Shown here piece by piece: positions 23,547 through 51,058 of a stretch of DNA of 64,000 bases; the first letter of the stretch is position 1, and every line of letters starts with the position of its first letter. The notes beneath the pieces are model-generated. The model saw only the letters and a list, made by a program, of their open reading frames with translations, was not told where the DNA came from and did no database searches. Origin of the DNA: Centroscyllium fabricii. Its lineage: Eukaryota. Location of the stretch: the NCBI GenBank assembly GCA_051313645.2, contig JBNRSN020000017.1, positions 80,476,001-80,540,000 of the forward strand, read 5' to 3'. Both the position numbers and the translations under genes were made by a program.

Positions 23547-23649
23547 TTAAACGCAAAGCATTGAAGTTGAATTTTGCCAACCCAGCCTTCAAGACAACAG
23601 CACGGCTTACATTAAATCCAACGGGAGTTCACTTTCAGAACCCACACAT
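23547..23649 (+). CDS. MAP2K4: MAP2K4 coding exon (human exon 2 equivalent; MAPK docking D-domain)
   Basis: ttttgaacAG|TT AAA CGC...CAC AT|GTAAGT; 103 nt; KRKALKLNFANPAFKTTARLTLNPTGVHFQNPH. Confidence 0.97.
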
Positions 23650-25261
23650 GTAAGTGGAGTTTTCTAGTTTAACAATTTTTTTTTTTTGTTAAGATTGGTA
23701 ATGTATGTACTCCAACAAATCCTGGAGCACCGATTGCAACACCCTTTTTTTGAAACCAGCAGAGAAGATGGGTCTGTTAATGGTCATCTTCAGTGTTTCT
23801 CTGATCAGTCAGTAGGAGTTAATCGTAGTGCAGCCTGAGAATCCTTGCTTCTATCGGGGAGGTACCTTGCCTTTCACTCCGTGCTGTGCTTGATGACTAG
23901 ATGCAGATCAGCAATTTGTACTGTGGGAATGTCATGACTGAGATTTGAGTGCTTTAGATTACTTTGTATTTGCCAAAGCAGGACTAAATAATATTTTGTA
24001 GCAGTAAATGTGTGAGCTAGTTGTGAATATAATTGAAATTTAAAAACATGTTTGTAACTGGCTATCATTTATAAGTTTGCATTCTCTGTAAAATATGAAT
24101 GAATGTTTTCAATTTCCTGTTTCATTGCATAGATATTGTATGGCCTAAGCTGATTGTTGCAAATTTCCATTTGCATGTATTGTCATTCTGTTTTGTAACT
24201 TACAGTAAATACTTGGATGAAAAATGCTTTTAAAAAGCATCAACATTTGTCTATTGTAATATGGATGGACAACTGGAGACATTGAGTCCATTAGTGAGGG
24301 ACAAACTCACTTTTATAACGATACGTTTCAGATTCTACTAAAACTAGATCATGCCATCTATATGCCCAATAATAAATGCCCTTGAATCCATGAAAATTAT
24401 TGGTTACTTTATTATTTGCCAGGTAATCTGTTGTTTATGTGCCCATTTTCAAAGAGTTCAACAAAATTTCCACTAAAACAATAGCAGTTTTTAGCTGAAA
24501 TGATTAAGTCCAGCCATAAGGTCAGAATTGAAACTCCGGCTAGTTGCCATCAATTCACTGGACTTTCCGCGTGGTGGTGAGGCTTACGTTCTGAGGGGAC
24601 AGGCAGTCCATGCTAACTGAAGTACATTCCCTCTCCGCTACTTCATAAAGTCACATTGAGAGTAGATGCAGGCAGCCATGGACCCTTAAACTCTTGAGCT
24701 GGTGAAGGGTCGTGGCTGGCCGTTCATTAAAAAAATATATTAATTTGAGGGGGAAGAAATGAAATTGGTGTAAAGTATGTATTTGCATGTGTGTTATTTG
24801 CGAAGCTACTGCACTTGATCATTGTAAAAAAATGTTCCAACAGAAGTGTATTCTGAATCTGGCATTATTAGAGAAGTGACTACTCACTTAATAATTGCAT
24901 GTCTGTTCTGAACCTTTATTATATGCATACCTTAAATAACGGCAAACATTCCTTTGTAAAACTAGCTTTTCAATGCATTCGTTTTTGCAGTCATAATTGA
25001 CATGCTAGTATAGTTAATCTGTTGTAAAATTAGTTTATTTTACAGAACTTGTAACTGTTGCAGAATTAGGTTTTGTGGTCTGTGGAGATGTGCAAATCTT
25101 TGCATGAAAACTGGGTATGGTGAAGTAAAATTATTCCAGGATTGAGCTGGAGAAGTTGCAGGGCAGATGGTCAGTTTAATGCATTGACATACCAATTTTT
25201 ATAAAATACATCTATCTTCAAACATTTTCTGAGGCCCTTGAGAAAAGTCTAGTTATATATT

Positions 25262-26578
25262 AAAAAAAATAGACCTGGGCGTGGGTATGTAGGGCATCAT
25301 TTCAAAGTTTGCAGATGACCCACAACTCTGAAAAGTAGTGAACAGTGAGGAATATAGTAGCAAACTTCAGGAGGGCATAGACAGACTGGTGAAATGGGCA
25401 GACACATGGCAGATGAAATTTAACGCAGTGCAGTGTGAAGTGATCCACAGAAACACAGAAGATAGGAGCAGGAGTCGGCCATTCGGCCCTTCAAGCCTGC
25501 TCCGCCATTTTGATGAGATCATGGCTGATCATCCAAACCCAGCACCCCCCTCCTACCCTCTCCCCATATCCCCCGACACCCCTAACTCTAAGAACTATAT
25601 CTCACACACATGCTCATGGGCAATTTTTAGTATCTCCAATTCACCTAACCTGCATGTCTTTGGGTGGTGGGAGGAAACCGGAGTACCCGGAGGAAACCCA
25701 CACGAACACGGGGAGAACATGCAAACTCCACGCAAACTCCACGCAGAGAGGTCCCGGGCTAAGCAGGATTCGAACCCAGGAGCTCCTTATTGCGAGGCAG
25801 CACTGCGCCACCGTGTCGTCCCTCCCCACCGTGATGCATTTGGGGAGGAAGAAAGAGACAATATAAACTAAATGGTGTAGTTTTAAAGGGGGAACAGGAA
25901 CTGAGACCAGGGATGTATGTGCACAAATCTTTGAAGGTAACAGGACAAGTTGAGAAGGCTGTTAAAGGCATCTGGGATCCATGACTTTATAAATAGAGAC
26001 AGAGAATACAAAAGCAAGGAACTAAACCATCACAAAACACTGGTTATGTCTCCGCTGGAGTGTTGTGTCCAATTCTGGGCACCACACTTTAGAAAGGATT
26101 TCAAGGTCTTGGAGAGAGTCCAGAGGTAATTTACGAGAATGGTACAAGGGATGAGGGTCTTCAATTACATGGAGAGACTGGAGAAGCTGGGGTTGTTCTT
26201 CTTAGAGGAGAGATGGTTAAGGAAGATTTAATAGAGGTGTTCAAAATCATGAAAGGTTTTGATAAAGTAAATTAGGAGAAACTGTTTCCAGTGGCAGAAG
26301 GGTCGGTAACCAGATACAGATTTAAGATAATTAGCAAAAGAGCCAGAAGTGAGAAGAGAATTGTTTTACGCAGCGAGCTGTTACGATCTGAAGTGTACCG
26401 TCTAAATGGGTCGTGGAAGCAGATTCAGTAGCAACTTTCAAAAGCGAATGAATGGGAGAAATTTGCAGGGTTCTGGGCAAAGAGCGGGGGAGTGGGACTC
26501 TCTGGATCGCTCCTTCAAAGAGCCGGCACCGGCACGATGGGCCGAATGGCCACCACCTGTGCTGTAAGATTCTATGAT
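25262..26578 (+). mobile_element. CR1 LINE 3' fragment with nested antisense V-SINE type 2 (~25447-25822)
   Basis: FADD-region and WQMKFN motifs, CR1 3' UTR ending ATTCTATGATT; the SINE is flanked by GTGAT(C/G)CA. Confidence 0.88.
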
Positions 26579-27210
26579 TAAAAGTATCTGCACATGTAAA
26601 ATTTGATGGTTTTTGTTCCCATTAAGTTTCGGCAGGTTCATTTTAGCAGATTTGTTACACATTTTGTGAAGAATATTTAATTAGATATTGGTGACTTTCT
26701 GCACACCACAGCTGAAACTCCTCCATTTGTCTTGGAAATCGAGAAATGTCGCTGTCCTGCTTATGATTTCTGTCCTGGGAGCTGGTGCATGTATTTGTCA
26801 CATGATTTTTTGTCTTATAACACTCTTGTGAAGCACATTGGGACGATTTACCATGTTAAAGGCGCTATATACATACAAGTTGGTATAGCAAATTATATTT
26901 TGCATCAATGGATTGATTAAAACAACTAGCTAGGGCAATATCCTGTGGTAAAGTCAATGTTCATAAAATGCAGGAAGAGCAAGGCAGTGCTATGCAGTTT
27001 TATGTGCCTTTTTGCTGTTAACATGCTTTTTTTAAGTATAGCCAGTCTGCATTACAGGATAGTTGTAATGTGCAATTATTAAATTCTGAGCTGAGCTACA
27101 TTATTAATAGCACTACCTTGTGCTTAATCAGCACTTTGTCCCATTTCTGTATTAAAAACAAGTCACTGTTCACTTGATTTAGTGGGTAAAAGCACCTGCT
27201 ACTTTTGAAC

Positions 27211-27473
27211 CACATAGAAGATAGGAGCAGGAGTAGGCCATTCGGCCCTTCGAGCCTGCTCCGCCATTCAATGAGATCATGGCTGATCATCCAAACCCAG
27301 TACCCTGCCCCTGCCCTCCCCCCATATCCCTATCGAGCCTGCACCGACACATATCCCACCCTATCCCCGTAACCCCACATATTCAATCCCCCTAACACTA
27401 AGGGTCAATTTATCCTGGCCAATCAACCTAACTCGCACATCTTTGGACTGTGGGAGGAAACCGGAGCACCCGG
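27211..27473 (-). mobile_element. 5'-truncated V-SINE type 1, tail B
   Basis: Matches the 3' two-thirds of 52660-53052. Confidence 0.85.
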
Positions 27474-27698
27474 GTTTAACTTCTGGTCTGTTATTAGCCG
27501 ATTTCAGCCAGGGTAGCAGATGGGATGTTGCAATTGGCCTCTGCACTCGAGTTAGGGAGAGAGGGCAGGAGAATCAATGAGTTTCCTGGTGCTGATCAGT
27601 GGCTGCTGCTACACTGTCTGCAGGGGGAGCAGGGGAAGGTGATGGGAGCAGGCTTGGGTGTGATGCCCTCGGCATTTAAATAGCTTGCTAACACTCTG

Positions 27699-28266
27699 GC
27701 CCCGATTTTAACACTCCTCGCCTGGTAGAAGATGGGTGGGGGGCAGTTAAAATAAGGGCAGCCACTAACCCCATGTGATCCCCCTGCCTTCTTGCCGATT
27801 CCCAATATTAACCTCTTTTCAGCAAGCAGGACACTGCAGGAAGGTGGCGGGGTCCTGCTTTAACTATGCAGATTGGGACCCGGTCAGGCCAAAGCTGCCA
27901 GGAGCTGGATGGTGGGCCAGCAGAGGCTCCGCTCGGCAGGTAAATGTTTAGGTATCCTCGTGGGCCAGGAAGAGCAGGAGTGCTCCTTTTGGGCCCCACA
28001 AGACAACTTTGGGCCTCCCTTGCTCCGAGCTTGCTTTGATCGACTCCTCCCTGCCACTCAGCTGACTGTTGACCGTCCTGCTGCTTCCGAATTCCCAGTG
28101 TTTGAATTCTTGATCCCGCACACTGGCCATGTACGGGCGGGCGACCGACCATTTATGGAAGTGGGGCCTGGCTGTTAAGGTTGGCCAGGCCTTTGTCTCT
28201 GTTTCCAGGTATGTTGCCCGCTTTGGAGCTAACGCGCACCATTCCTGCCTCCGTTAAAATCGGAGC
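27699..28266. mobile_element. GC-rich MITE, superfamily uncertain (possibly PIF/Harbinger)
   Basis: TIRs GCCCCGATTTTAAC...GTTAAAATCGGAGC (13/14 match). Confidence 0.6.
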
Positions 28267-29929
28267 ATCTATATCTGGCCTCTTTCATGAATCTGCATAT
28301 TCACTGTTGAGGCTGCCTGTGTGGATAGGTGTTGGGGAAGCAAAGTGGCGAGTGGAGGTTATTTGATTGCTGTGAAGAGTGGGAAGAAGGGGATCCAGTA
28401 GAATATGCCTTTGATGGTAATAAAGAGTTGCATATTACATGTAAGAATTCTGAAAATAACCAGTATATTTGAAGATTTAAACGCACATCTGAGTACTTAA
28501 TAGTTTTAACACCCCCCCCCCCCCCCATTTTAAAGGAACCATTCGTAGTACGATATGGATTTTTAGTGATTGTTTCAAATCTAGTAAGAATTTTTCTAAA
28601 CTCGAAAGAAATTAATTCTTAGCTCATCAGACCAAATATCACTGCATTTGTCCTCTGATATGGAGACCCTTTGGGCTGAACATTTTATTTTTGCCTGATT
28701 GTGCAAACAGTTGGTTGGCTTGTTGAGCACAAGCTGTTTTCTAACCAGCTTGCATCTTTTGAAATTGAAAAATGTAGATAACAGATGTTTTATATTTACA
28801 AAATACTTCAGATAATTGGCTCTTTTAAAGCTGTGTTGCCACACAAACTTTTTTTAAATTTTCATTCACCCTTTAATGTCACATCAGTGCTACTGACACA
28901 AGCCTAGAAGCAGGACATCTGACTGCCCCTCATTTTGGAATGGCCTTCTCCTGAACGGAATCGTTTCTGACCCCCCTCCCTTGGCCACCTTCGCCACAAT
29001 CGCTGATGCGGCCAGGCTCTTGTCACTTGATGAGAGGACTGGCTGGAGATCTAAGCTAATGTGCCACTGCCCACTAGGAGGCACCCGAGAAAAGCTCGGT
29101 GTGCCTGTCTACAATTATTGTATTTGTTGGTGAGAAGCATCTGGCTTCCATTATTGCCACCCTAGATTGGCATAGAAAGAAATCAATAACTTGTTTGACA
29201 GAGATTGATGCCAGTCCACACCATGTTGCTCTGCACTTTGAAGCTCGAATGTGTGGTGCATTGGTTTCTCTTCTGTGCAGTATAATGACATGATTGACAG
29301 GCTGAAGTTTGCACAGAATATAAATATAGAAATAACTGCAATTGAACAAACTATCCTTTGAGCTCATAACAAAATAGGACGTAATGACTGTGGGTAATGA
29401 TTTTTGAAGGAGAAACTTCAGTACTAAAGCCACTTTTTCTTTAATTTGCATTTATTTCTTTCAGAATATTTTTATTTATTTAATATTTCAGCCTTTTACT
29501 TATGTCACCAGCCTAAATTTTTTTTTTTGGTCTCCAGCACTTTTTAAAAAGTCTGAATAAAAGCAACTTCCTGGTTCACGTGTCTGAGAATTCTGTATTG
29601 TGATTGGCTGCATTGCCACCGCACCCACACGCCGCCACCGCACCCATTAAAGCTCAAACATGGTGTAAAATGCATGAAGCAATAGGGCCATAGAATGTTT
29701 GCACACTGCAGTAATAATAAAGCAGATCATATCACCATATACTCCACTTAAATGAAACATATTTGCAAGGGGCCTTTGGAGGGGGTGTCCCATATTTGTT
29801 GGGGCACCTGGGCATAGGTCCCCTTAGGCTTTGTAAAGAAGCAAATTACAGGAAACATTTTTTATTCGGGACCGGCGTGATGCCGATTTTATCAAAGTCC
29901 TGATTAGCGAGGTATAGTAAAAGGTATGA

Positions 29930-30070
29930 GAGCCCCGTACATGGCCACAGATCCAGGCGTCTCTGTTGCATAGCAACAGGTGCAGGAACCCCAGCCACAG
30001 ATCTAGGCATCCCTGTTGCATAGCAATAGGTGCAGGAACCCCGGTTACATGGCCACAGATCCAGGAACGG
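29930..30070. repeat. Short tandem repeat, ~50-60-bp unit, 2-3 copies
   Basis: Repeated GCCACAGATC(C/T)AGGC...CTGTTGCATAGCAA(C/T)AGGTGCAGGAACCCC. Confidence 0.85.
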
Positions 30071-30440
30071 CCACTAATATGAAAGTAAAACTTACCTGAA
30101 CCTACTCCTGAATTTTGCCTGTTAAGAGATTTCTGGTTATTTAGGTGCCGGTAAATTGAGAGTTTCCTGTTGGTACATATAATTGTGTCTGGCAGCTTAG
30201 CATGGGTGAATAACTGAATAGATGAAGAACATGATTTCTGTATTTCTTTCATCATATCACTACCTTAATGCCCAGAATCCATATGCTTATGAAATAGTTT
30301 TTGCTGGATTTCTATGAAGCAACATTAGTAGTTACAAAGAAGATGAAAGCATTTTGTAACAGGCAGGCCACGCAGTGCTATCTCATACAAGCTTGTCTTG
30401 GTGTAAACTTCTATCTACAATAAGCTTGATTGCTGGTCCA

Positions 30441-30720
30441 CAACACCTTGCATTTAGATAGCACCGTTAACATGGTAAAACGTCCCTAAGCACTTCACAG
30501 GAGCGTAATCAGACAAAATTTGACACTGAGCCTCATGAGATATTAGAACAGGCTTGGTCACGGAGGTAGGTTTTAAGGAGCATCTTAAGTGAGGGCGGAG
30601 AGGTTTAGGGAGGAATTTCCAGAGCTTCGGGGCTAGACTGCTGAGGGCAAGGTCCCCAATCGAGGGGCGAAGGAAATCTGGGATGCACAAGAGGCCAGAA
30701 TTGGGGGAATGCAGAGTTCT
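30441..30720 (-). mobile_element. L2 LINE 3' fragment
   Basis: Reverse complement matches the 3' part of 3045-3550. Confidence 0.78.
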
Positions 30721-31263
30721 CTGGTTCTGAACTGGTATTAGAAGCAGAAACATTTTAATCTGGAAATTTTATTCAGTTGAAAGCTCAGCCAGCAGTTTTG
30801 TAGAAATTTGTTTGTGTTGGTGTATAATTTTATTAAGTTTCAACTTCTGAGTTTTCCATTAGTGTCTCCAGGGCACATTTAACCTACACAAGATTAGGCT
30901 TAATGGCTATCTGAAGTCTGGTACGTGCACCTAAATTTGCTGAAGGGGCATTAGGTGTTGCTTTTGTCTTTAAGAAATAATGTACGGTTTACAGGATTGA
31001 GTTGTTATAAATGTAAACGAGAATTAGCTATTTTGAAATTTAAAAGTTGGGAAACATGCTTGTGTGGTTGTACTGGTCCAGTATCAATACATTGCGAATC
31101 CCAAAGCAAAATTTGTGTATCTGTTCAGTATTCTGATACTACAAGCTGTAAGTCAGCTATTTGACAATAGTTTCCATTAGCTTCAAAACTAAATGTTGCA
31201 ACGCTAACATTTACCACTGTTTTTCCATTAGTCTGTTAGATTTTACACTGATATTTTCTGCAG

Positions 31264-31362
31264 GTCCAGGCCCACCCAAAAACAGGGCCCAGACCTTGGA
31301 TCTTTGGAACTTTCAGCTCCCGTGGATAAAGACTTCATATCATTGGAAATGAAGCGAACAAG
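31264..31362 (+). CDS. Candidate in-frame 99-nt cassette exon of MAP2K4 (unverified)
   Basis: gatattttctgcAG|G TCC AGG...ACA AG|GTTTGT; 99 nt, open in phase 2-2 as this intron requires; encodes (M)SRPTQKQGPDLGSLELSAPVDKDFISLEMKRT(R). Confidence 0.45.
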
Positions 31363-32084
31363 GTTTGTTTGGATTTGCATAATATGTAACACAGAAACTG
31401 TGACATTCTGGAACCAGTTCTGAGACTTCTGATAATTCATTTGAATTACATTTGTATTTGCATCCTGGACAACTTCAGACTTGTTGGGGGAGAGCAAGAG
31501 AGACGTAACACTTGGGTTTGTCTCGCACCGACCGGTATGGTAGAAGAGGAATATATGCAGTTACCAATGTTTTGCTACTAGATATCAATAGTGCACTTCA
31601 GTTACAGAATACATATTAAATGTTAAGGGGTGATAAAAGGGTATTGTGGTCATCTATTTACTCTGACTAAAGCAAATTAATATATCTGCTTACCTGTAAT
31701 TGATTAGCAATTGATTAATTGGTTCTGTGGGTTCATATTTTGTAACGCAGCTCTTTTGTACATTTGTCAATACTATGCAGCCTATTTCATACATAACTTC
31801 TGCATATGTTTTATCATAATAGACACATTAGAATTGTCAAACTTGGTTGCAATTTCTGTTGGGTGTTTTGTTCCAATTTCCTGACTTAAATGTTACTCCT
31901 GTACATTCAGCTATCAAAAACTCCATGTGTAAATAAGATTTGCTGTCATGCATGGGGGGTGGGGGTTGAAATGAGGCAAGTGAGGACATTTCCTTGTGAA
32001 ACTAGCCACTTACGCTACAAATGAAACTGAGTTTCACTCGGCTCATGAACTTGATTCCACCACCTTTTTTCTTTTAGTATCATT

Positions 32085-32870
32085 GAATGTTACAGCGCAG
32101 CAGGAGGCCATTCAGCCCATTGCGCTTGTGCTGACTTTTCAAGGAGCAGTCCACTTACACCCCATACTCTTTACATTTTTTTTCAATGTTTATTCACTTG
32201 TCTTTTTAAAAACTATTGTGGATTATGCTTTCACCACTGTTTCTGCTATGACATTCCATATCCTAACAGCCTCTGTGTATAAAATATCTCTCCATTCTTT
32301 TGGAACTGATCTTGAGTTTATGGTCTCTTGTTAACAATTTACCAGCGGAAATAATTTTTTTCCCAATTTGTCGCCTCCATCCCTCATAAATTTCAAGACT
32401 TGTCAGATCCCCTCTTAATGTTTTTTTGCTCTAATGAAAGGAACTCCCATTCTCTTGTGTCCTCATAACAAACACTCTCATCCCTGGAGTTATCTTGGTG
32501 AATCTCCTGCACACTCCATGGTCTTGACATCTTTGCTAAAGTGCAGTGCCCAGGACTGGACGCCATGTTCTAACTGCAGCCAAACCAGGGATTTGTATAG
32601 GTTTAGCGTTACCTCTGTCTTTGTACTTTATGCCTTTTGTATACAAAGTTTTGGATCCCTTTTTTTTACAGCATTATCAATGTGTCTTGCCACTTTAAAG
32701 ATTTGTGTACTTAAACTCCTGAATCTCTTGGTCCTTCTACTTTTAAACTTTCACCCTTTACTGTATACATCCTCTCCCTATTCATCCTTTCAAAATGCAT
32801 TACCTCGCATTTCTTTACCTGCTATCTCTTTGACCAATCTACTAACCTGTATGTCCTCCTGAAATTGCTT
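32085..32870 (-). mobile_element. Old degenerate CR1 3' fragment
   Basis: CAGGAGGCCATTCAGCCCAT tail hairpin region and GTGCAGTGCCCAGGACTGGAC (QFW-region antisense). Confidence 0.7.
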
Positions 32871-33849
32871 CTCAAGTTAACAACACTTTCTTAAACAGTG
32901 ATATTACTCTGATGTGTTGATATTACTTCAGGTTCTCACAAGAGCATTTACCAAACCCATTTTCGGCCCATCACTAAACAGGTTGGTGAATTTGATAGTG
33001 GAATTAATCTGCAAGTATTACTCTTTGGCAGGACAGGGGTCCTCCTACTCCTGCTGTTGGCACTTCGGCCAACATTTAGAGTCACACTCATTGGCATCCA
33101 TATGCAGCTATGTGGTCAATCTTGCTTTCACCAAGTTTTATTTGAGTGATTACCCTGCAATTATACAAGCTAACTTGAACACTTTTATACCTTGGTTTCC
33201 CCTGTCCATATCTGTATTAACTTGATATCTTCATTGAGTGAAGAATGAAGAATAATCTTGCATTACTTATGGTCTTTCTGTTTGACAAAAGTGTAGCCTC
33301 CTTTAACAAAGTTCTACCCCTTAATTCTCTCTCTAACCTGCTACGTAAGCTGTTGACTTTACTTTTTACTGCTATGTTCAGGTTTACTGAAAATTTCTGT
33401 CAAGGACCTATGGGTGCAAATAGTGTAAGGGCTTGTCATTAATTTCAGTCATTAAACCAGTTTTGGTATAGTTAGTATAAAATTAGGCTTTGTCCACCAT
33501 TCTTTGCATGAATAGACTATTTAAATGTAGTAATTCATAATCTAGATTAGTTTTATACATCTGCAAATTCTCTCAAATCTTTGAATGACTAAAGACTTAA
33601 AATATTATTGCCAAGTTTGTTATTTATAGCGGTACAAATTTTCTGAAGAGCAGTCATTTTTACAATGTTGATTACATTTAATTCTAAAGACTATAACTTA
33701 ATTTAACAGTGAAATTGGTAACTATTTGAAATTAAGATTATAAAAGGATTTGGGAAAGGTCAGCGAGATTTAATTAGAGTTAAAAGTTCCATTTTAAGAA
33801 CTAGTATAGGCACAGGTGAGGTAGGCCAAGTTTCAGTGGTCAAACCATT

Positions 33850-34400
33850 CTTGCTGGGTGACTATAGGATAAAACTGGTAGAATAATATTGTACGGCAAT
33901 GCTGTATGAACAGTATGATTATTTATTAGGCCAAATGAGCAATGCAGATATAACCCGCACGAGTTATGAACCACACAGCAGCACCATGGTGAATGAAAAA
34001 GGAGCCTCTGCTATTTCTATTCGTACAAGGCAGTGAAGAATCACGCATTACAGTATTGCTGGCAGAAGGTATACTACCTGGTTGTAATGCTAAAAGATAT
34101 AAAATGGTACACAAGGATGAAGTTTCACCTGGCATGCAATTATGGTCCCAAGAGAAGGGGCTTGGAGACCGAGGATTTAATGTTGCCAAAATTGCTTCCC
34201 GTGGTCATTAAATATTTAGTGGTTTGTTTATCAAAATAGCACTGATTTGAACATAATGCCACGAGGGATGACGAACCAAACATGGATGTAATCATAAAAC
34301 AATGATGCTTTGCAACGCGAGTACCACAACTCATCTTTACAAGTGCACTCATAAACTGACACCAGTAAAAACCTGGATTGTTTCAGTGTATTCCGAATGT
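33850..34400 (+). pseudogene. Degenerate pogo-family (POGK/Passer-like) DDD transposase relic
   Basis: Frameshifted translation YDYLLGQMSNADIT...MVNEKGASAISIRT / GSEESRITVLLA / PGMQLWSQEKG / TEDLM / TDLNIMPRGMTNQ / HKLTP is collinear with POGK-type motifs (QMGNADETP, WMTEDLM, IIPGGLTSQLQ). Confidence 0.75.
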
Positions 34401-34459
34401 AGGGCAGAAGATCATCTTCAAATATAGTATTTTTAACTAACTTCACCTGAATAGCAAGA

Positions 34460-35000
34460 TGGTCTTTGATTTAGCACCTCATCTGAAATGTCAGCCTAGA
34501 TTATGTCCCCAAATGCTGGAGTGGGATTTGAACCCACAAACTACCATCTAATTGAGTGTTAACAACTGAGCAAAGCTGGATCGGTGCTGATATTTCTCCA
34601 TTACCAAAGTACTTTAAAAAATGCTGTGCCTTCAACAACATGAATAAAAGTGTCTGCAACCACTGTGGTGTTAGAACTGTATTGTTTACCTTGTTTTATA
34701 GTAAGAAAATAGTGACTGCATGGACAGTGGACAACTAATGCTGAGACCCACTTTTTTTTAGTTACCACAGTAAGTCTGGATACAAGTTCCGTTTCTTAAA
34801 CTCTTGAGCTATCATGGAGTTGCGAGCTATCATGGAGTCCGTTTGGCTCTGTTGATATATTCTTGCCTCTTGAATCAGGAGGTTGTGGGCTCAAATTTCA
34901 CCTCTGGACCAGAAGGCATATTGTAAGTTGACCTGTGACTGCACTGAGGGAATGCTTTATTATTGGGGGTGCTATCTCTTCAGATAACGATGCTAAAGCG
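34460..35000. mobile_element. Two degenerate Deu-SINE head fragments (- at ~34460-34590, + at ~34830-35000)
   Basis: Similar to the head of 58171-58860 (GGTTGTGGG.TCAA.T, GCACTGAGGGA.TGCT). Confidence 0.55.
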
Positions 35001-35021
35001 AAGAAGCACAAATATTATAAT

Positions 35022-35650
35022 GACCCAGAAATTGCAGTGGAGCCTTCGTGTGGGTGCAGTACCTGCTTAACGACTTGAACTGCCCATATTCAGGTTTGCT
35101 TTTTTGCACTCAGAAATTGCAGTTAGCCCAGCCTGTCAGAGCTCTGTGCGAGCTTCATGGGCATCTGAAGGGCGTAATTAGTGCGAGATGGCTTTTGAGA
35201 CCACCTGATTGGCAGGGAGCCAATCAGTGGAACCAATTCTCCATTCAAAACTTCCACAGAGAAATCTGTGCGAGTTTTGAAAGGAGAGATTGCCCAAAAG
35301 ACATCTAAACACAAAAATAAAATTTTACAAACACCACATTTTTTTAACATTACCCCAACTAACACAAATAACCTATTTTAAAGAAAAAATAAAAATTTAC
35401 AGAAAAATGTTTCAACTTCCAACAGGTCTAAAAAAATACTTACCTGTCTTTAAAGTTATCAACAATTCAAAACCTGAAAAAACAACAATTAAAATCAATA
35501 AAATACACACTTACCGGATAAAAATGGCTACTTACGACTGCTTTTTCCCAGCGTAGAAAATCCTGGTCTTGGTCCGTAGAAAAACGTTAAAAAAATATCG
35601 GAATGACTGGACGCTCCCGTAGTTCGATGCTTCCTGCGTGGTCATTAATC
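35022..35650 (+). mobile_element. Probable DNA-transposon fragment (CCCAGAAATT terminus) with internal hairpin and A-rich tract
   Basis: Layout parallels 43616-44040; a matching terminus GAATTTCTGGCCC is at 77-89. Confidence 0.5.
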
Positions 35651-35659
35651 TCAGTGCTG

Positions 35660-36297
35660 GTTGACTGCGAGCTGAGCTTCCGACCCCAGATCTTCTCCAT
35701 CACAAAGACCGCCTACCTCCACTGCTGTAACATCGCCTGTCTCTACCCCACTCCAGTTCATCTGCTGAAACCCTAATCCATACTTTTGTTATCTCCAGAC
35801 TCGCCTATTCCAATACCATCGCATCATCCGTCTTCCATAAAATTGAGCTCATCCTTAATTCTGCTGCCCGTATCATAACATAAGAAATAGGAGTAGGCCA
35901 ATCGGCCCCTCGCGCCTGCTCCACCATTCAATAAGATCATGGCTGATCTGATCCTAACCTCAAATCTGGTATCCTAAGCTGCACCAAGTTCCGCTTACCC
36001 GTCACCCCTGTGCTCACTGACCTACATTGGCTCCTGGGTCACCAATGCCTCAATTTTAACATTTTCATCCTCGTCTTCAAATGCCTCCTTGGTCTCGCCC
36101 TTCCCTATGTCTGTAACCTCCTCCAGCCCTGCAACTTTCCAAAAACTCTGTTTCCCTCCTTCCTCTTTGCACAAGATTTTAGTTATTTGTCGTAATGCCG
36201 CCTCCTTTGCCTCTTACCAATTTTTGCCTGATTACGCTCCTGTAAAGTGCCTTTGGAAGTTTTCCTTTTAAAGGTGCTATATAAATGCAAGTTGTTT
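35660..36297 (+). mobile_element. L2 LINE 3' fragment with nested CR1 3' tip (~35876-35966)
   Basis: GCTGAAACCCTAATCCATACTTTTGTT..TCCAGACTCG and LTDLHWL motifs; GCTATATAAATGCAAGTTGTT tail. Confidence 0.82.
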
Positions 36298-36670
36298 ATG
36301 GAACATTTCTGTGGGCAAAGTGGCTGCTATGTTTGTCAACATAACAATAGTGACTGCACTAAAACAACGTCATACGGGAAGTGCTTTGGGACACCGTTAG
36401 GGACGTGTTGAGACACTAACTTTCTTTCCTTCATAAATTTCTTGACTAGTTTTAGGCATCACATACAATTTTTTGAAAATATCTGTGTTCCACGTTTGAT
36501 CTCTTGGATCCTTCCTAACACTGGTCATATAACCATATTTTTCACATCCATGGGTAATTCATTGACTTGTAACATATATGCGATGTATATTAATTTCTCG
36601 ATACATTTCCCCCAGATATTTTGAGTGATGGATCAGTTCAAGGCACCTTTTCTGTATAAATAAGTAACTA

Positions 36671-37058
36671 TGAAGAATGAGGGGGGATCTCATAGAAACG
36701 TTTAAAATACTGACGGGTTTAGACAGGTTAGATGTGGGCAGAATGTTCCCATTGTTGGGGAAGTCCAGAACCAGGGGGCACAGACTAAGGATTTAGGACT
36801 GAGATGAGGAGAAACTTCTTCACCCAGAGAGTGGTGAACCTGTGGAATTCTCTACCACAGAAAGTTGTTGAGGCCAGTTCACTAAATATATTCAAAAGGG
36901 AGTTTGATGTAATACTTACAACTAGGGGGATCAAGGGATATGGCGAGAAAGCAGGAACGGGGTACTGATGTAGCATGTTCAGCCATGAGCGTGTTGAATG
37001 GCAGTGCAGGCTCGAAGGGCCGAATGGTCTACTCCTGCACCTATTTTCTATGTATCTA
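36671..37058 (+). mobile_element. CR1 3' fragment
   Basis: RMRGDLIE / RNFFTQRVVNLWN region plus tail hairpin. Confidence 0.88.
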
Positions 37059-37937
37059 TAACTATAGTTTGTGTTCTTGGGTTATTGAAAAGGTCATGGA
37101 ACTTTTTTCTGAGCTCACTGAATTGGTTTATATTTAGGTCAGGCACTGCAGTGAATTACAGTAGTATTTTCACTTTAAACTTCAGAAATAACAACAGTAA
37201 TAATCCCAAACTAAAACACTTGTATAAAAATAAATGATTGCTCTGGTCTCTGTTTTGCTTCTGTTGTCTTCCCTCTTTTTATCTTCACTTGTAATTTTGC
37301 CAATTTCTACTGTTGATTCTTCCCCCTGCCCCCCCCCCCCCCCACTTTAAAATCTGATGCTAGCTTGTTTATTTCAGTCCTCCCAACCACACCCATGTTT
37401 TTGGAAGTGGGCGCAGTGTTACAAATATGACTTAGTTGAAAACTGCCTCACAACAGCAGTTTTTCAGCCAAAGAAGCAAAGCTGAAGACTACCCAGGTCA
37501 AATTCTAGATGCAATGTTTTCAATTTGTTTTTTAGTGTTAAAACCAGGGGAAGGACTATCACCGCCCCAGTCAGACAAGTAAGCCTGCTCTCGCCACTCA
37601 GTTGAAACAATCCGTAAAACCTAAATTGCCATTCATCCAGCTTTCAGCTTGCTAAATTTTTTGTGTTGCAATCAGGATTTAGTTAAAACATACTGAGAGA
37701 GGCAGCTGACCACACTAAAGGAGCCGCCATTGAAATCGAATCAAGAGAATCTCAAATTTTTAAAATAGCAGTTTGAGCCAAAGCGAAACCTCATAACAGT
37801 AGCATAGTGGTTATGTTGCTTGACTAGTAATCCAGAGGCCTGGACTATTGATCCAGAGACGTGATTTCAAATCCCACCACGGCAGCTGGAGACTTTAAAT
37901 CTAGTTCATTAAATAAATCTGGAATAAAAAGCTAGTA

Positions 37938-38211
37938 CAGGTTGTGCACCGTTAATCTGGCACCCAATGGTCCGGCACCTTCAGTGGTCCGGCACGAATC
38001 CATCTGGCCGGCCCACGTGATCCCAGGGATGCTCGCGATGCATGGGCCTCTCCCCAACTAGTCTGCGCATGAGCAGTGGCCATTTTGAATGGTCGGCGCA
38101 TGTGTGGCGGCTATTTTGGATGGTCTGCACATGCGCTCCCCGAACCTTCAGTAGTTCGGATTTTTCAGTGGGCCTGGTCCCGAGGGTGCCGGGTTAACGG
38201 TGCACAACCTG
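37938..38211. mobile_element. Tigger-like MITE with family A ends and a different internal sequence
   Basis: TA|CAGGTTGTGCACCGTTAA...TTAACGGTGCACAACCTG|TA; the same A>T change is present in both TIRs. Confidence 0.9.
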
Positions 38212-38562
38212 TATCAGTAATGGTAACCATGAAACTACTGGATTGTCACAAAAACCCATCTGGCTCACTGTCATTCAGGGAAGGAAATCCGCCATCCTTA
38301 CCTGGCCTGGCCTATATGTAACACCAGACCCACAGCCAAAATTGGGAGAGCTGTCCCACAGACTAGTCGAGCAACAGCCTGACAAAGTCATACTCACAGA
38401 ATCATACCTTTTAGCCAATGTCCCAAACTCCTCCATCACCATCCCTGGCTATGTCCTGTCCCACAGTCATTGTTGAAACAAAGTCCCAGCTTCACACTAA
38501 GGACACCCTCCATCGTATTGTATGGCACTACTACCGTGCTAAATGGGATAGATTCAGAACAG

Positions 38563-38788
38563 TGGACGACACGGTGGCGCAGTGGTTAGCACTGCTGCCT
38601 CGCAATAAGGAGCTTCTGGGTTCGAATCCTGCTTGGCCCGGGACACCTCTGCGTGGAGTTTGCATGTTCTCCCTGTGTTCGTGTGGGTTTCCTCCGGGTA
38701 CTCCGGTTTACTCCCACCACCCAAAGACATGCAGGTTAGGTGAATTGGAGATACCCTGTACTAAAAATTGCCCGTAAGTATGTGTGTG
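38563..38788 (+). mobile_element. V-SINE type 2, 3'-truncated (tailless)
   Basis: Intact head and V-domain; flanked by AGAACAG at 38556-38562 and 38789-38795. Confidence 0.85.
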
Positions 38789-41109
38789 AGAACAGATCTA
38801 GCAGCTCAAAACTGGGGATCCATGAGGTGCTGTGGGCCATCAGCAGCAGCAGAATTGTATTCCACCCCAATCTGTAACCTCATGGCCTGGCATATCCCTC
38901 ACTCTACCAGGGGACCAATCCTGGTTCAATAAGAAGTGTAGACGAGCATGCCAGGAGCAGCACCAGGCGTACCTAAAAATGAGATGCCAACCTGGGGAAG
39001 CTGCAACACAGGATTAGATGCATGCTAAAAAGCAGAAGCAGCATGCGAAAGACGGGGCTAAGCGGTCCCACAGTCAACAGAGCAGCTCAAAGTTCTGCAA
39101 TCCTGCCACATCCAGTCATGAATAGTGGTGGACCATTAAGCAACTAACGGGAGGAGGAGGCTCCATGAATAACCCCATTCTCATTGATGGTGGAGCCCAG
39201 CACGTGAGTGCAGAAGACGAGGCTGAAGCGTTTGCAACCATCCTCAGCCAGAAGTGCAGAGTGGATGATCCATATTGGCCTTCTCCTGAGGTCCCCACCA
39301 TCACAGAAGCCAGTCTTTAGCCAATTCGATTCACTCCACGTGATCTCAAGAGATAGCTCGGCGCACTGGAAACAGCAAAGGCAATGGACCCTGACAACAT
39401 TCCGGCTGTTATGCTGAAGACTTATGGTCTAGGACTAGCCGCGCCTCTAGCCAAGCTGTTCCAGTACAGCTACAACACTGGCATCTATCTGACAATGTGG
39501 AACACTGCCCAGCAGGATAAATCCAATCCAGCCAGTTACCCCTACCCTCAGTCTACTCTCAATCATCAGCAAAGTGATGGAATATGTCATTGACAGTGCT
39601 ATCAAGCGACACATACTCACCAATAACATGCTCACTGATGCCCAGTTTGGGTTCTGTCAGGACCACTCGGCTCCAGAACTCATTACAGCCTTGGTCCAAA
39701 CATGGACAAAGGAGCTGAATTCCAGAGGTGAGGTGAGAGTGACTGCTCTTGACATCAAGGCAGCATTTGACCGAGTGTGGAGTCGAGGAGCCCTGGTAAA
39801 ACTGAAGTCCGTGGGAAAGCTCTCCCATGGCTGAAGTCATACCTAGCACAAAGGAAGATGTTTGTGGTGGGTGGAGGTCAATCATTGCTGCAGGAGTTCC
39901 TCAGGGCAGTGTCCTAGGCCCAACCATCTTCAGCTGCTTCATCAATAACCTTATCACCAACATAAGGTCACAAATGGGGACATTCGCTGATGACTGCACA
40001 GTGTTCAGTGCCATTTGCAACTCCTCAGATAATGAAGCAGTCCATGCCCGCTTGCAACAAGACCTGGACGACATTTAGGCTTGGGCTGATAAGTGGCAGT
40101 TAACATTCGTGCCACACAAATGCCAGGCAATGACCATCTCCAACAAGCAAGAGTCAAACCACCGCCCCTTGACATTCAGTGGCATTACCATCACCAAATC
40201 CCCCACCATCAACATCCTGGGGGCTACCGTTGACCAGAAACTTAACTGGACCAGCCATAAATAGTGGCCACAAGTTCAGAGGCTGGGGATTTCTGACTCC
40301 CCAAAGCCTATCCACCATCTACAAGGCACAAGTAAGGAGTGTGATGAAATACTCTCCACTTGCCTGGATGAGTGCAGCGCCAACAACACTCGAAGCTCGA
40401 TACCATCCAGGACAAAGCAGCCACTTGATTGGCACCCCATCCACCATCTCAAACATTCACTCCCTCCACAACAGGTGTACCGTGGCTTCAGTGTGTACCA
40501 TCTACAAGATGCACTGCAGCAACTTGCCAAAGCATCTTCGGCAGCACCTCCCAAACCCGTGACCTGTACCACCTCGAAGTACAAGAGCAGCAGGCGCATG
40601 GGAACAACACCACCTCCAAGTTACCCTTCAAGTCACACCGTCCTGACTTGGAAATATATTGGCCGCTCCTTCATCGTCGCTGGGTCAAATTCCTGAAACT
40701 CCCTAACAGTACTGCGGAAGTACCTTCACCACAAGGACTGCAGCAGTTCAAGAAGGCAGCTTACCACCATCTTCTCGAGGGCAATTAGGAATGGGCAATA
40801 AATGTTGGCCTTGCCAGTGACGCCCACATCCCAGGAACAAATTTTTAAAAAGTTATCTTTAGCAACAGCAAAGAAACACAATGATTTCCAGGGAAGATAA
40901 GCTGACTTTTTTGGGAGGATGGTTTGAATATTTTATCTTAAAATGAGGTGGTCTGAATTAGCAAGGTACTCCCCCACCCCTAGCTCAGATATTAATTGTG
41001 GCTCATTACTGAACAATAAATCAAAGATATCCTGTCTGCTGCTCCTTCTCACATGTTGAATTTAGAAGAAATCCATGATTGCATCAATAAATGCTTCTGG
41101 GGTTTCACA

Positions 41110-41480
41110 TCTCTGATGCCTATCCTGTTTTCCCAAGTGGATCATTGAAAGCTCTCATCTTCACTACCTTCCCTTCATTGACAATCTTCATGATTAGATT
41201 GCATAGCTGCAGGCCCCTCTCTTGGTTTGGGTGTCTGTAACACAAATCAAAGTACTCGGGTATTTCTGATAGTTCCACTTGAAGCCAGGGTGATTCGCCA
41301 CTTGCAATATTACCTTGCTCCACTGCTTCTGTTCTGTTTCTAACAATGATGGACACCCCACCCACACTATCCTTCCGAAACTGTGTTTAGATATATGAAA
41401 ATCAGACCTTTTCTCAAAATCCTGCCAAAGTTCTGTAAGGGCTATCTGCTCGCTTGTCGATGTCAGTGCTGCGGAGTTCG
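41110..41480 (-). mobile_element. Very old LINE endonuclease fragment (CR1-like)
   Basis: ORF 41120..41365 has GGVSIIVR, CYRHPNQ and a GDFN-like RAFND motif. Confidence 0.55.
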
Positions 41481-42302
41481 CTACTTTTGTTATGCAATGT
41501 TAATTTCGAGTAATGTGTCCTGTGCAGTGCACTAGTGAAATTCTCTCAACTGTGCCGTAATGCGCCATAAACCTAACGGAGAAGGACAGCATTATGTGAG
41601 CTTCAGGTTCCTGCCCAAACCATCTTTGTGCACTCTTGGAGATGGCAAATTAAGGATATATTTATGCTTTAGAATTATCTGTTTATATTTGGATTGAGGA
41701 AATAGGACTCTTTCAGCAAAATGAGATGATTTTCCTTCCATCAGTGTGAGTTAGATTTGAACCCAGGTCTCTAAAGTTAAAGGCCTTGTTCTAACACAAG
41801 TTCCCCAAAAGGTAGATTTACTTGGGTTTGTAAAGCTTTCTTCCCTATTATCTCATTTTTGAGATTTTAATCCATGATCACGCCGCTTTCCACCGAAACA
41901 AGCAGTGTCACCTGAGTTCAGTAACAGGAAGAGGCTATTTGACCCACTGAGCCTCCATCTCTGACCCACCAACACCCCTGGAGCGAAAAGTAGTTCCAAC
42001 AGTTAAATTTTAGACTGATGTTTGGATTTCAATTTGTTCCAATTTAATTTCAAATGGTGGAGCTTGGCAGAACTAACCTGACACAATATTGCATCAAAGA
42101 AAGTTCCTGTGAAGACGTTTGTTTAGCTTCCCTAACCTCCCAACTGACATGCTGATGGGAGGTTAGCAGTGGAGAGTTAAAGGGGGGGGAAATGTAGTAA
42201 CCTTAATGGAAAAAGTGACGAGGAACAATTGGGGGGGAAACATAGGGGGGGAATTTCATGTCCCCGTGAGGGGGGGGTTTCGGCAGCCAGTAAAATAGCG
42301 GA

Positions 42303-42583
42303 NNNNNNNNNNNNNNNNNNNNNNNNNNNNNNNNNNNNNNNNNNNNNNNNNNNNNNNNNNNNNNNNNNNNNNNNNNNNNNNNNNNNNNNNNNNNNNNNNN
42401 NNNNNNNNNNNNNNNNNNNNNNNNNNNNNNNNNNNNNNNNNNNNNNNNNNNNNNNNNNNNNNNNNNNNNNNNNNNNNNNNNNNNNNNNNNNNNNNNNNNN
42501 NNNNNNNNNNNNNNNNNNNNNNNNNNNNNNNNNNNNNNNNNNNNNNNNNNNNNNNNNNNNNNNNNNNNNNNNNNNNNNNNNNN
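42303..42583. other. Assembly gap (281 N)
   Basis: Run of N; flanked by GC-rich MITE-like sequence (~42245-43230). Confidence 0.99.
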
Positions 42584-43615
42584 CCGCCCAGGTTCCCTGC
42601 CGCGAAACGTTCCCAGTTGTTGCCTCGTTAAGGGCCCTTAATTGGCATGTTTAATACCATTTTAAGGGCCCTCAGCCATTTTGACCTGTTTCCTGCCCTA
42701 ACCCCGTCACCTTAAACCCCGCTGGGTGAAACCCAGCGGGAGCACAGCGCTGGTTATCACTTTCTCCTTCAAGGTGTGAAGGATGTGCTGCCAAATGCTT
42801 GGCATGCCTCCAGCACCTTAGAGGAGTAAGTTACTCTGTTCTGTCTGCACCAGCTGTGAGCAAAAGCTGAAAAATCTCAGCTCTGCACATTTGCTCACAG
42901 CCGGTGCGAGCTGTCAAGTATTCTGAGCCCGCCTGCCCACCTGTCAGTCTCCAGCACTTGACCTTTCCCATTGGTTCCACTCGACTGATGTCACAGTGGA
43001 GTGTTTCCATGGGAACTGTCAACAACCAGTGCTGGAACTGCCAATCAAACTGCTCGCAGCCCCACTGGAGCCCGACTCGATTGACTTAATTGCCACCTGC
43101 TGCCGCCGGCGTGGATTTAACAACCCAATTAAATTAAAATTGCGTGGCCTTCCCAGCTGTTTGGGTGGGCGGGAAAGGAAGCCGCCCAGACCAATCTCCG
43201 CCAAGTTCCCGCCCTTCTGGCAAAGTCCCCCCCATATACAAATAGGGTCGGATAATAGGTTTTGGTCGCTTAGGGCGCCAAAGATGGCCTGTATGTTAAC
43301 AAATGGTTTGCGGGGAGCTGAAACGTATTCTAGTCCAAAGATTACCTATTCTCTAAACATGCAGGTAACCAAAAAATTCTACAGTATCTGAAGTTTGTTT
43401 GCCTTTACTGTACTAAGCTTTGTAAAATGAAATGTCCTTATTTTGTTTCTTTATACCTGTGGAATGCAATGCTGATTATCTTAGGCACATGATGTTAAAT
43501 GAGTGGACTTAAAGGAAGTAGCAGTGTGAGGGGTAATGGGACACCAAAGTTAGTCAGACCTTTTGTAAATTTGAAGTTCAATGATGCCTTAATAGAAAAA
43601 TAAATGATGCACATT

Positions 43616-44040
43616 AGCCCAGAAATTCGGCTTGGAGGCTTCCTGCGAGTGCAAACCTCCAACCCACACTTACGGACCGCGCCGGCCATTGAGCATTGCA
43701 CCCGCATGAAACCCGATGTTGGGTTCTCCTGAACTGCCAGCGCGCTGTGCTCCTGGATTTGAACGGCGGAGTTAGTGCAAGATATCGCGTGGGATCACGT
43801 AGGCCGCGGAGAGCCAATTGGAGCACAGGATGCTCCATTCATAAGTTTGACAGGAAGACCTGTCAAACTTATGAATACTACAACACCAAAACCACAGTAA
43901 ATCTTAAAATATATTTTTTTTAAAACATGACATTTTTAAAATAACTATCAATTACACAAATTAGCTATTTTAAACAAAAATTAAAAATTTTGAAAAAATA
44001 ATTAAATTATTTAACGGGGCTAAAAATCAACTTCAGATCT
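43616..44040 (+). mobile_element. Probable DNA-transposon fragment with perfect 18-bp hairpin (43837-43876)
   Basis: GCCCAGAAATTC terminus; ATTCATAAGTTTGACAGG-AAGA-CCTGTCAAACTTATGAAT; related to 35022-35650. Confidence 0.55.
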
Positions 44041-44933
44041 GCATTAGCACGGTTGTACATTGGTGCAGTGAGCAATGTGAAATTTTTGTCCGCATTACAA
44101 ATTGGGAGCTCATTTCAAACCTGACCAATAGCTTTGTGTAAAAAGTGTTTGTAAATTGGTGCAGCTTCCCTTCCTCAACCTATGCTCGAGCCATCACCCT
44201 TTGAGGCACACAGTGTATGCCCTTGTGTAGATTTTCTTTCTGGCCTACATGAATAGGTTTACAGACGTTACGCTCTGATGCAACGAACAGTAGCAACATT
44301 TGAAAGTCCACAGCAGGGGAAGTCAATAATACTAGAGCTGTAGTTATTTTGGGAGGTGTGAAAGATCTGCTCTATGTTTAAGTTTTGACAGCTGCATGAA
44401 AATCTTTCTAATGCATGAGGTTTCAGCAGCATTGACTAATGCCTGGGGTCTTGATCGTGTCACAGCATATATAGTCTAACGGTCTGTAGTTGCAGAAAGC
44501 AAAAGTTTTTCTTCAGTTCCTGAAGAGAGATTTATTTAGCTGTTACACCTGTTAGCTATTGATGCATATTATCTTTTTTTAAATCTGAAATACTGCATTT
44601 AGTTTCAAGTCTTGATGTAACAGCATGCTTTTCAACATCATTACATGGGGAAAAGATCTGTTAACCCCAATTGTAGCTGGATGTCGATAGGAATTTTCCC
44701 CAATAAAAAATCTAATTACTGAGCTTGCCAGTCCTAGTTTACATTATTATTTGGGGGAAACTGGGTCAGAGGGAATGTAGCATTTTAGGTTAAAAAAAAT
44801 TAAAATGTAATTTTATAAATGGCTTTGAACGGTTGAAAATACCTGTAGTAATTTTATGAATACAAGCTTAGGATGGGACATGGATTCTATTTGCTGCTGT
44901 CATTGCATTTACTTAAAACCGCTAATACTGATT

Positions 44934-45289
44934 AGAATCATAGAAAGATAGGAGTAGGCCGTTCGGCCCCTCGAGCCTGCTCAATGAGATCATGGCTGAT
45001 TATCCAAACTCAGTACCCTGTCCCTGCCTTCTCCCCATATATCTCGATCCCTTTAGCCTCTAAATATATCTAACTCCTTATTGAATATATTTAATGAATT
45101 GGCCTCTGCTGCCTTCTGTGGTAGACAATTCCACAGGTTCACCACTCTCTGGGTGAAGAAATTCCTCCTCACCTCTGTCCTAAATGACTTACCCCTTATC
45201 CTTAGACTGTGACCCCTGGTTCTGGACTCCCTGGCCATCGGGAACATCCTTCCTGCATCTAGCCTGTCTAGTCCTGTTAGAATTTTATA
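44934..45289 (-). mobile_element. CR1 3' fragment
   Basis: YKILTGLDRLDAGRMFP...RNFFTQRVVNLWN; same subfamily as 18365-20928. Confidence 0.9.
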
Positions 45290-45703
45290 ATCCTGAGTAA
45301 TTCTGTGCACAGTATGCCTTTAATGTTCTTTATAATTGAATTTTATTCTAGTTTTAGAGTTCGGGTAGTGGATGTGTTCATGGCTGCCATTTACAAAGCA
45401 GTGAGCAGCCTTTTGCAATCATTTTGAAACTTTGCAATTGTTTAAGTGGCACTGAAACCCTTTCAGTATTGAGAAAATATTACATTCTGTAAATTCCTGT
45501 GAGGCATTGCATTTAATTAGTGGTTACAGAAAATTGTGTTGCGAAAGTAGAAACTAAGCAATTAAAGTAGAAACTAAGCAATTCTGTTGTGTTTCTGGGG
45601 GTGTGCACCATTCAGCATTAATTAATTTTCATTATTATGATTCATCCTTCATTGAAATTATTTTTTCTTCTGTATAACATACAGGATATTAACAAAGATG
45701 ATA

Positions 45704-46015
45704 CAGGTATACAACCTCTTATCCGAAACCCTTGGGGCCAATGTGTTTCGGAATTCGGAATTTTTTAGATTTTTGATATTCACGAAATTAAACTCAAAAT
45801 CACAAAAAATATCAGAGCAGCAGAAGCACCTGTGACTGGTAGCAGCGCTGAGACACAAATGACGCCTCACACCTGCGTGGGTCAAGCGTCGGCTGCGTCG
45901 GGTCATGTTTGGTGCAACTCAGGTCATGTCGTGCACACGAGTGATGCTCCACGAAAACACTTTCGTTTCTCAGAGCTTTGATTTTCAGAATTGCGGATAA
46001 GGGGTTGTATACCTG
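45704..46015. mobile_element. Tigger-like MITE (CAGGTATAC ends)
   Basis: TA|CAGGTATACAACCTCTTATCCG...CGGATAAGGGGTTGTATACCTG|TA; ends related to 21377-22122. Confidence 0.88.
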
Positions 46016-50938: not shown

Positions 50939-51058
50939 CGAATTCGATCAACAGTGGATGAGAAGGAACAGAAACAGCTTTTGATGGATCTAGATGTTGT
51001 AATGAGGAGTAGTGACTGTCCATATATTGTTCAGTTTTATGGAGCGCTCTTCAGAGAG
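50939..51058 (+). CDS. MAP2K4: MAP2K4 coding exon (exon 4 equivalent)
   Basis: tctttcAG|CGA ATT...AGA GAG|GTGAGA; 120 nt; RIRSTVDEKEQKQLLMDLDVVMRSSDCPYIVQFYGALFRE. Confidence 0.98.

Follow-up and report, generated by a model that had tools for sequence, protein, structure and literature searches.

A conserved and likely alternative MAP2K4 exon of cartilaginous fishes that lengthens the docking-to-kinase linker by 33 residues

The window analysed here, a stretch of 64,000 nt from Centroscyllium fabricii, lies in the middle of the MAP2K4 (MKK4) gene, which is on the plus strand. Only one MAP2K4-like locus was found in the 7.2-Gb genome of this species by a strict search, so that this count is a floor. 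MKK4 is described as the sole MAP2K that activates both JNK and p38, and KRKALKLNF as its MAPK docking motif (PMC8391806). The window harbors the exon encoding this motif, several exons of the kinase domain and, between them, a candidate cassette exon. The features are the following.

5133 to 5165, plus strand: 33-nt exon upstream of the docking-site exon, with AG..GT boundaries and 11/11 identity to ray and shark models
23547 to 23649, plus strand: docking-site exon (KRKALKLNF), 103 nt, upstream neighbour of the candidate exon
31204 to 31263, plus strand: 3' splice-site region with a pyrimidine-rich CAG acceptor
31264 to 31362, plus strand: candidate cassette exon of MAP2K4, 99 nt, phase 2-2, assigned by signals, frame, spliced contigs and orthologous peptides
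31363 to 31372, plus strand: 5' splice site GTTTGT, 7/9 positions of the MAG/GTRAGT consensus, UG-rich
47450 to 47624, plus strand: downstream exon, 175 nt, coding for ERLRTHS (Akt-site motif) and the beginning of the kinase domain
50939 to 51058, plus strand: kinase-domain exon, protein-model match
53951 to 54070, plus strand: kinase-domain exon, protein-model match
56797 to 56848, plus strand: kinase-domain exon, protein-model match
57948 to 58075, plus strand: kinase-domain exon (activation segment), protein-model match

Other elements were observed around the locus. The 33-nt exon at 5133-5165 sits at what we take to be the position of the mammalian MKK4-delta exon, and suggests that a delta-position exon is as old as the jawed vertebrates. 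A further cassette-like exon of about 44 codons (G000:C678:80466591-80466728) is located about 9.4 kb upstream of the window, before the docking site. It is better conserved than the 31264-31362 exon (42/43 residues identical between Heptranchias and the chimaera), and a different, Cys-containing piece is found in this region in teleosts and bichirs. The docking exon of the window is without one Gly codon, as are two skate models. In the intron before the docking exon there is a CpG-rich stretch (16400-16960) with several TGCGCATGCGCA-like palindromes, which looks like a repeat or a promoter-like element. The downstream intron contains, on the plus strand, a decayed fragment (39200-39620) that we presume to be LINE ORF2-like. 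Narcine models P0003 and P0021-P0027 have, where the FRE and GDCW exons meet in the kinase domain, a 53-residue insert to which no match was found in the window.

The candidate exon is bounded by the acceptor ...ttttctgCAG at 31263/31264 and the donor AAG/GTTTGT at 31362/31363, which enclose 99 nt. The preceding exon ends in AT (23649) and the following exon begins with A (47450); therefore the intron is in phase 2. In the inclusion frame the exon is stop-free, with an AG acceptor, a GT donor and a length that is a multiple of three, and it places 33 further residues between docking site and RLRTHS motif. Boundaries and frame had been given in the original prediction and were confirmed on rechecking, as were its remarks that the segment is GC-richer than its flanks (0.48, against 0.35 in the 200 nt upstream and 0.41 in the 200 nt downstream) and lies in some 1.3 kb without recognised repeats. 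When 30401-32400 was compared with the window, in-window repeats were found only at about 30441-30720 and at 32097-32146, leaving about 1.4 kb around the exon without an in-window repeat. Branch-point-like pentamers are present at -60 and -16 of the acceptor, as a pattern match only, and an alternative AG 24 nt upstream of the acceptor is unused in the four sequencing runs examined. The DNA (331 nt) has a single match in the 7.2-Gb genome, and so has the exon peptide at E up to 10, both counts being lower bounds; no repeat family was recognised. Scanning the flanks for splicing-factor words revealed no RBFOX or ESRP word, only short common words. A crude chance filter was applied, which asked for donor and acceptor of equal or better grade, a length of 30-300 nt, a preserved frame and no stop. 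Three candidates pass it in the 24-kb interval, namely 31264-31362, its 24-nt longer version, which has the same donor, and one other; the splice signals alone are therefore selective but not proof.

Public sequencing runs were searched with the 99 nt, represented by 5 sampled words. This gave 16 runs, drawn from 6 organisms and 7 studies, and 15 of them contain all words. None of the listed runs is on record as RNA, and their tissues are hidden. Four of the 15, one each from four organisms and studies, were compared with 31060-31580. All four (4/4) have one contig of 157-159 nt that covers exactly 31264-31362 with 0 mismatches, an identity that is selected, the runs having been chosen for containing the exon. 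On one side the contigs extend into the docking-site exon by its last 28-30 nt, and on the other into the 47450 exon by its first 30 nt. These joints were read from the loose ends of the contigs, in a comparison of the exon with short flanks, and not across the introns. The adjoining intron has no depth in the four runs, except for a separate contig at 31060-31187 in run X2. This contig, from another organism, differs from the upstream intron of the window by one substitution and a 3-nt insertion, and could be a conserved intronic element or merely reflect close kinship.

All four runs depart from the window sequence within a few letters of entering the docking-exon end, and are therefore relatives and not the haplotype of the window. 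Thus the junctions 23649 to 31264 and 31362 to 47450, which the original prediction proposed to look for, are present in every run compared, in relatives, and splicing in the species of the window is inferred from them. The contigs yield neither tissue nor inclusion level. If the assembly word length is 31, as we assume, a contig of 30+99+30 nt would be expected as one side of an assembly bubble caused by exon skipping. Since exon and intron alike begin with GT and end with AG, a branch lying exactly at the boundary would point to a direct junction, and the 28-nt end in run X8 would fit a branch against unspliced RNA. Long and short forms appear to co-exist within the same samples, and alternative splicing of the exon is very probable, the direct skip junction being seen in protein models and not in reads. 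That 31264-31362 is a real exon we consider nearly certain, because RNA-type junctions occur in 4/4 runs and the sequence is conserved.

This conservation extends through the cartilaginous fishes. With a 41-residue query, three clusters of RefSeq MAP2K4 models were retrieved that match the exon stretch at 97%. Among 43 cartilaginous-fish proteins the insert is carried by 31 (29 whole and 2 starting inside it). Of the others, 8 join the two neighbouring exons directly (skip form), 2 carry a different upstream piece, and in 2 the region is missing. Carriers include Heptranchias, Narcine, Hypanus, Hemitrygon, Mobula, Amblyraja, Leucoraja, Rhinoraja, Callorhinchus and, with a partial copy, Pristis. 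The exon, which had been called unrecognised, is therefore already present in RefSeq and UniRef models, all automated (e.g. XP_067860416.1, XP_042198282.1 and XP_059804780.1; 22-32/33 identical). The insert of the window has 29-32/33 residues identical to those of rays, skates and a shark and 22/33 identical to that of the chimaera, always at equal length, so that the proposed boundaries and peptide agree with spliced contigs as well as with orthologous models from shark, rays, skates and chimaera. Frame and sequence are retained in the orthologous exons. The window and the four runs examined have Lys where 29/29 complete database copies have Glu. Between shark and chimaera, identity is 23/33 in the insert, against 35/35 in the docking exon, 320/326 in the kinase and 42/43 in the further upstream cassette.

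In Narcine and in Callorhinchus, database models exist for both the long and the short form. Three carpet-shark models listed have the skip form only, which does not show that the exon is absent there, because the listing of the main cluster covers 15 of its 36 members. A published account of the 33-residue exon was not found in a full-text literature search (paper supplements and most subscription journals lie outside it). A phmmer search with a 32-residue peptide against 1.8 billion 50%-identity representatives gave one irrelevant match and no matched stretch, a result that is uninformative, as one protein stands for each cluster; an ESM Atlas feature search with the insert in P0002 gave no usable match. 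On these data, the exon is conserved from sharks and rays to chimaera, likely alternative, present in automated annotation and, as far as searched, undescribed.

Several other vertebrate groups have conserved inserts of their own at the same place. The docking-to-kinase region of the chimaera was used as query, and 120 listed of 209 proteins (cluster representatives) were considered together with the members of 20 clusters, at most 15 from each. The 347 proteins sorted comprise 189 short forms, 54 incomplete or irrelevant ones, 33 of amphibian type, 32 of amniote type, 28 of cartilaginous-fish type, 5 of bichir type and 6 with one-off inserts at the 23649/47450 junction (two rat, Apodemus and three teleosts). 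The amphibian insert, of about 38 residues, is found in caecilians, salamanders and frogs; one of the proteins with it is the curated Xenopus tropicalis NP_001107157.1. Of the amphibian-type proteins, 35/38 carry it and 0 have the direct junction, in clusters that were picked through carriers. Lizards, turtles and birds have 32 residues at the junction. Crocodilians have 52-54 residues, with a different front and the sauropsid last 13-14 residues, and the monotremes platypus and echidna have 40, again with a different front and with the last 13-14 residues common to sauropsids. The bichir insert has 58 residues. The proteins with inserts of other lineages at the equivalent of the 23649/47450 junction are P0034-P0047, P0109, P0147-P0178, P0211 and P0217. 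The placentals, marsupials and teleosts sampled are mostly without insert. Judging from the proteins, the inserts of the non-shark lineages presumably correspond to exons too. The original prediction, whose author knew of no mammalian counterpart, holds for the placentals and marsupials sampled and needs qualifying for platypus and echidna, which have a different insert at the same junction; it had missed the inserts of the other lineages as well as the RefSeq presence of the shark exon. No published account of the amphibian, amniote and bichir inserts was found in the full-text literature search, supplements being outside it.

These inserts raise the question of a common origin. The identical protein junction in all lineages and the similar added length in four of five long forms would agree with an exon of the ancestral jawed vertebrate, from which shark, amniote and perhaps amphibian inserts diverged and which was lost in therians and teleosts. 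However, local and profile similarity is absent between the lineages: the shark insert gave local-alignment z values of -1.2 to 0.1 against the inserts of other lineages (200 column shuffles), and a profile probability below 0.2%, while the sauropsid-monotreme pair, a positive control in the same local-alignment test, gave z 12.6. Within lineages the inserts are plainly alignable (shark-chimaera 22-23/33), and, because they stay so, a full loss of signal over a slightly longer span would need a change of rate. In addition, tblastn with the amphibian, amniote, bichir and rat inserts detected no remnant in the two introns of the window (best E 0.41; 281 N excluded in the downstream intron). Another reading frame of the exon has a TSYH in common with the salamander insert; this match was rejected as non-collinear. 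If shark and amniote inserts are compared over their final 13 residues, counted back from the junction, they beat shuffles at p 0.014-0.021, uncorrected, in a test picked after looking, among 28; this is a weak hint at shared shark-amniote ancestry. The bony vertebrates within the 120 listed of 209 representatives, and within the cluster members considered, yielded no peptide similar to that of the shark; the named rows are without coelacanth, lungfish, gar, bowfin and cyclostomes (lamprey). The suggestion of an ancestral isoform in the original prediction is therefore unsupported. A single ancestral exon seems unlikely to us. A gain in the stem of the cartilaginous fishes, independent of the amphibian, amniote and bichir inserts, is quite probable, because inserts are alignable within a lineage over spans near the span between lineages.

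In the protein, the insert lengthens the docking-to-kinase spacing. Between the last residue of the docking motif and the glycine loop there are 57-58 residues in short forms and 91 in sharks (58 to 91 on inclusion), 92 in Xenopus, 89 in the ostrich, 95 in the platypus and 114 in the bichir. The idea of a lineage-restricted isoform with a longer docking linker is thus supported for the cartilaginous fishes. We propose that inclusion lengthens the tether between docking site and kinase and thereby would retune the strength and the ratio of JNK and p38 activation. The first 20 or so added residues would be a disordered tether. The last 13 or so may form a helix that crosses the junction into ERLR and would extend the pre-kinase segment, which in MKK7 and MEK1 holds a regulatory helix. 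Docked phosphorylation would then be altered in efficiency, as by changes of linker length in MKK6, and the JNK-to-p38 ratio possibly too.

The structural predictions are as follows. A first AlphaFold2 run (P0011, 78 close homologues) was discarded, its mean pLDDT being 37. The model of P0196, which consists of insert and kinase, was made with a 64-row alignment and has a mean pLDDT of 77.6. Its residues 1-22 are below pLDDT 50 (disordered), and a helix at 23-38 spans the junction at low confidence (pLDDT about 35-55; 23-29 at 50 or slightly above, 30-43 below 50). The junction-anchored 16-mer (last 13 residues plus ERL) scores as helix-prone in shark, chimaera, amphibian and amniote (0.32-0.40), whereas the short form (0.89), the bichir (0.61) and the rat (0.70) do not, in a test of 10 proteins. 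Residue 40 of the P0196 model aligns with residue 113 of MKK7 in 6YG1 (Z 32.5, rmsd 3.0, 295 aligned); therefore the junction lies near MKK7 108, inside the 76-115 regulatory-helix stretch. No structure among those listed superposes on the predicted helix, the alignments starting at model residue 35 or later, and the solved human MKK4 chains begin at the Akt serine, on the C-terminal side of the junction. The 76-115 stretch of MKK7 contains the regulatory helix, which lies between docking domain and kinase core and is reported to help set the active state (10.1101/2020.06.11.145995). For MKK6, making the linker longer or shorter by 10 residues is reported to halve p38 activation, and swapped linkers gave no rescue (10.1101/2022.07.04.498667). 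The corresponding region of human MKK4 is described as disordered, with chain outside the docking motif contacting JNK1 and p38 (PMC8391806). The mechanism is borrowed by analogy from MKK6 and MKK7, and we see the odds that tether and helix would change docked phosphorylation, and possibly the JNK-to-p38 ratio, as evenly balanced. For the reading as a whole, a conserved, likely alternative MAP2K4 exon that lengthens the linker and likely retunes JNK/p38 activation, we estimate a probability of about 55%.

The exon might act instead through a short motif, either an LC3-interacting-like (E/K)DFISL, a KRTR cluster resembling a nuclear-import signal, or the RxRxxT that inclusion creates at the junction as a second such site, two residues before the Akt serine. 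All three patterns are present in the inserts of sharks, rays and skates. Against chimaera, conservation is best in the DEDFI and EMKRTR blocks, and shuffled sequences match at rates of 0.022 (LIR-like) and 0.049 (basic pattern). Phosphorylation of MKK4 Ser80 by Akt is reported to be inhibitory (PMC10487481), and the Akt motif RLRTHS is intact in the long form. However, 16 patterns were tried, so that a few matches are expected, and the chimaera insert does not match the LIR-like pattern at the corresponding place. The junction Arg is a consequence of the exonic AG that commonly precedes a donor, and it recurs in unrelated inserts. None of the 5 docking patterns tried, and no PxIxIT, matches in the inserts scanned. 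A motif-based action is accordingly improbable in our judgement, about as much so as the ancestral exon.

Inclusion also makes an ATG across the 5' junction, and the exon holds a second in-frame ATG, so its main role could be to supply start codons for a short MKK4 without docking site, like MKK7-alpha. P0196 begins at the junction Met and P0192 and P0197 at the internal Met (Heptranchias, Pristis), and junction-start models are found in bichirs and Xenopus too. These models are automated, though, and 28 models have the exon inside a protein with docking site; an internal start would not require the N-terminal two thirds of the peptide to be conserved. We hold this role to be quite unlikely. 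The automated models without docking site, which start at the junction Met or within the insert, are P0192, P0196, P0197, P0164, P0180 and P0181, from shark, sawfish, Xenopus and bichirs.

A similarly low standing is given to the reading of the long form as a tolerated, nearly neutral variant, in which the exon keeps the frame inside a disordered stretch and would hardly affect signalling. The exon is less conserved than its neighbouring exons, and the one-species inserts of rat, Apodemus and three teleosts indicate that the junction tolerates or attracts noise. Against this, chimaera and elasmobranchs have the exact length and 22-23/33 residues in common, and the window agrees with rays, skates and a shark at 29-32/33. 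Neutral intronic sequence would not preserve frame and identity that long.

Finally, a chance pseudo-exon or transposon fragment, for which the non-optimal donor and the resemblance of a LINE-like fragment (39357-39422) to the peptide at E 0.31 could be cited, is hardly credible, since both ends are spliced in 4/4 runs, the exon is conserved to chimaera and the own-genome match is single at E up to 10 with no repeat family. The spliced contigs refute the pseudo-exon reading, and a LINE origin was rejected as chance (E 0.31, 31/66 bases after choice of the best match); a remote, old transposon origin would be invisible. The original prediction had called the donor weak (it matches 7/9 consensus positions) and had allowed for chance, which junction contigs and conservation speak against.

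The reading of a linker-lengthening exon may be extended to the whole intron. It could be a hotspot in which at least three lineages (cartilaginous fishes, amphibians and amniotes; bichirs with a longer insert) gained exons independently, converging on about 32-38 residues and on a helix that would extend the MAP2K regulatory helix. If true, splicing would switch MKK4 between JNK and p38 output by a means that placentals, marsupials and teleosts do not have. The bichir insert breaks the pattern because it has 58 residues and is not helix-prone (0.61), and we regard this extension as doubtful. MAP2K linker control of pathway choice is, as far as searched, known solely from engineered MKK6 constructs. 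Natural, long-conserved linker variants make this question directly testable, in four sequence flavours. In addition, frog, bird, reptile and shark MKK4 may differ in behaviour from the human textbook protein. The new part is the recurrence of lineage-specific inserts at one junction, of which no account in print was found; the surprise is limited, because the exon is already in automated annotation. The kind of event, alternative N-terminal splicing of a MAP2K, is known, and the exon is a further case.

Several known systems are comparable. The long MAP2K4 isoforms of cartilaginous fishes in RefSeq and UniRef contain the same exon, with Glu in place of the Lys of the window. MKK4-delta (human MAP2K4 isoform 2) likewise results from alternative use of an exon that keeps the frame, in the disordered N-terminal part encoded by this gene. 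It is reported to change cellular outcome, and two reviews give two isoforms only for human MKK4, MKK4-delta being the second (PMC8699841, PMC12942867). The exon at the delta position encodes 11 residues before the docking site and is separately present in the window (5133-5165), whereas the 31264-31362 exon encodes 33 residues after the docking site and is without counterpart in the placental and marsupial models sampled. The alternative N-terminal exons of MKK7 alpha, beta and gamma, a MAP2K of the JNK pathway, are also reported to change activity and partners (PMC8699841). The MKK7 isoforms gain or lose docking or calcineurin sites, while the shark exon is proposed to change the tether instead; it is unlike a motif exon of the MKK7-gamma type, the 5 docking patterns tried and PxIxIT being without match in the inserts scanned. 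At the level of structure, the insert ends at a register equivalent to the MAP2K regulatory helix (MKK7 6YG1, MEK1), and its last residues are predicted, at low confidence, to be helical, a putative likeness. The docking-to-kinase linker of the MKK6-p38alpha structure is the same region (10.1101/2022.07.04.498667). In that case the changes were engineered, in another MAP2K, whereas the shark change is a natural splice difference of 33 residues in a MAP2K that serves both JNK and p38.
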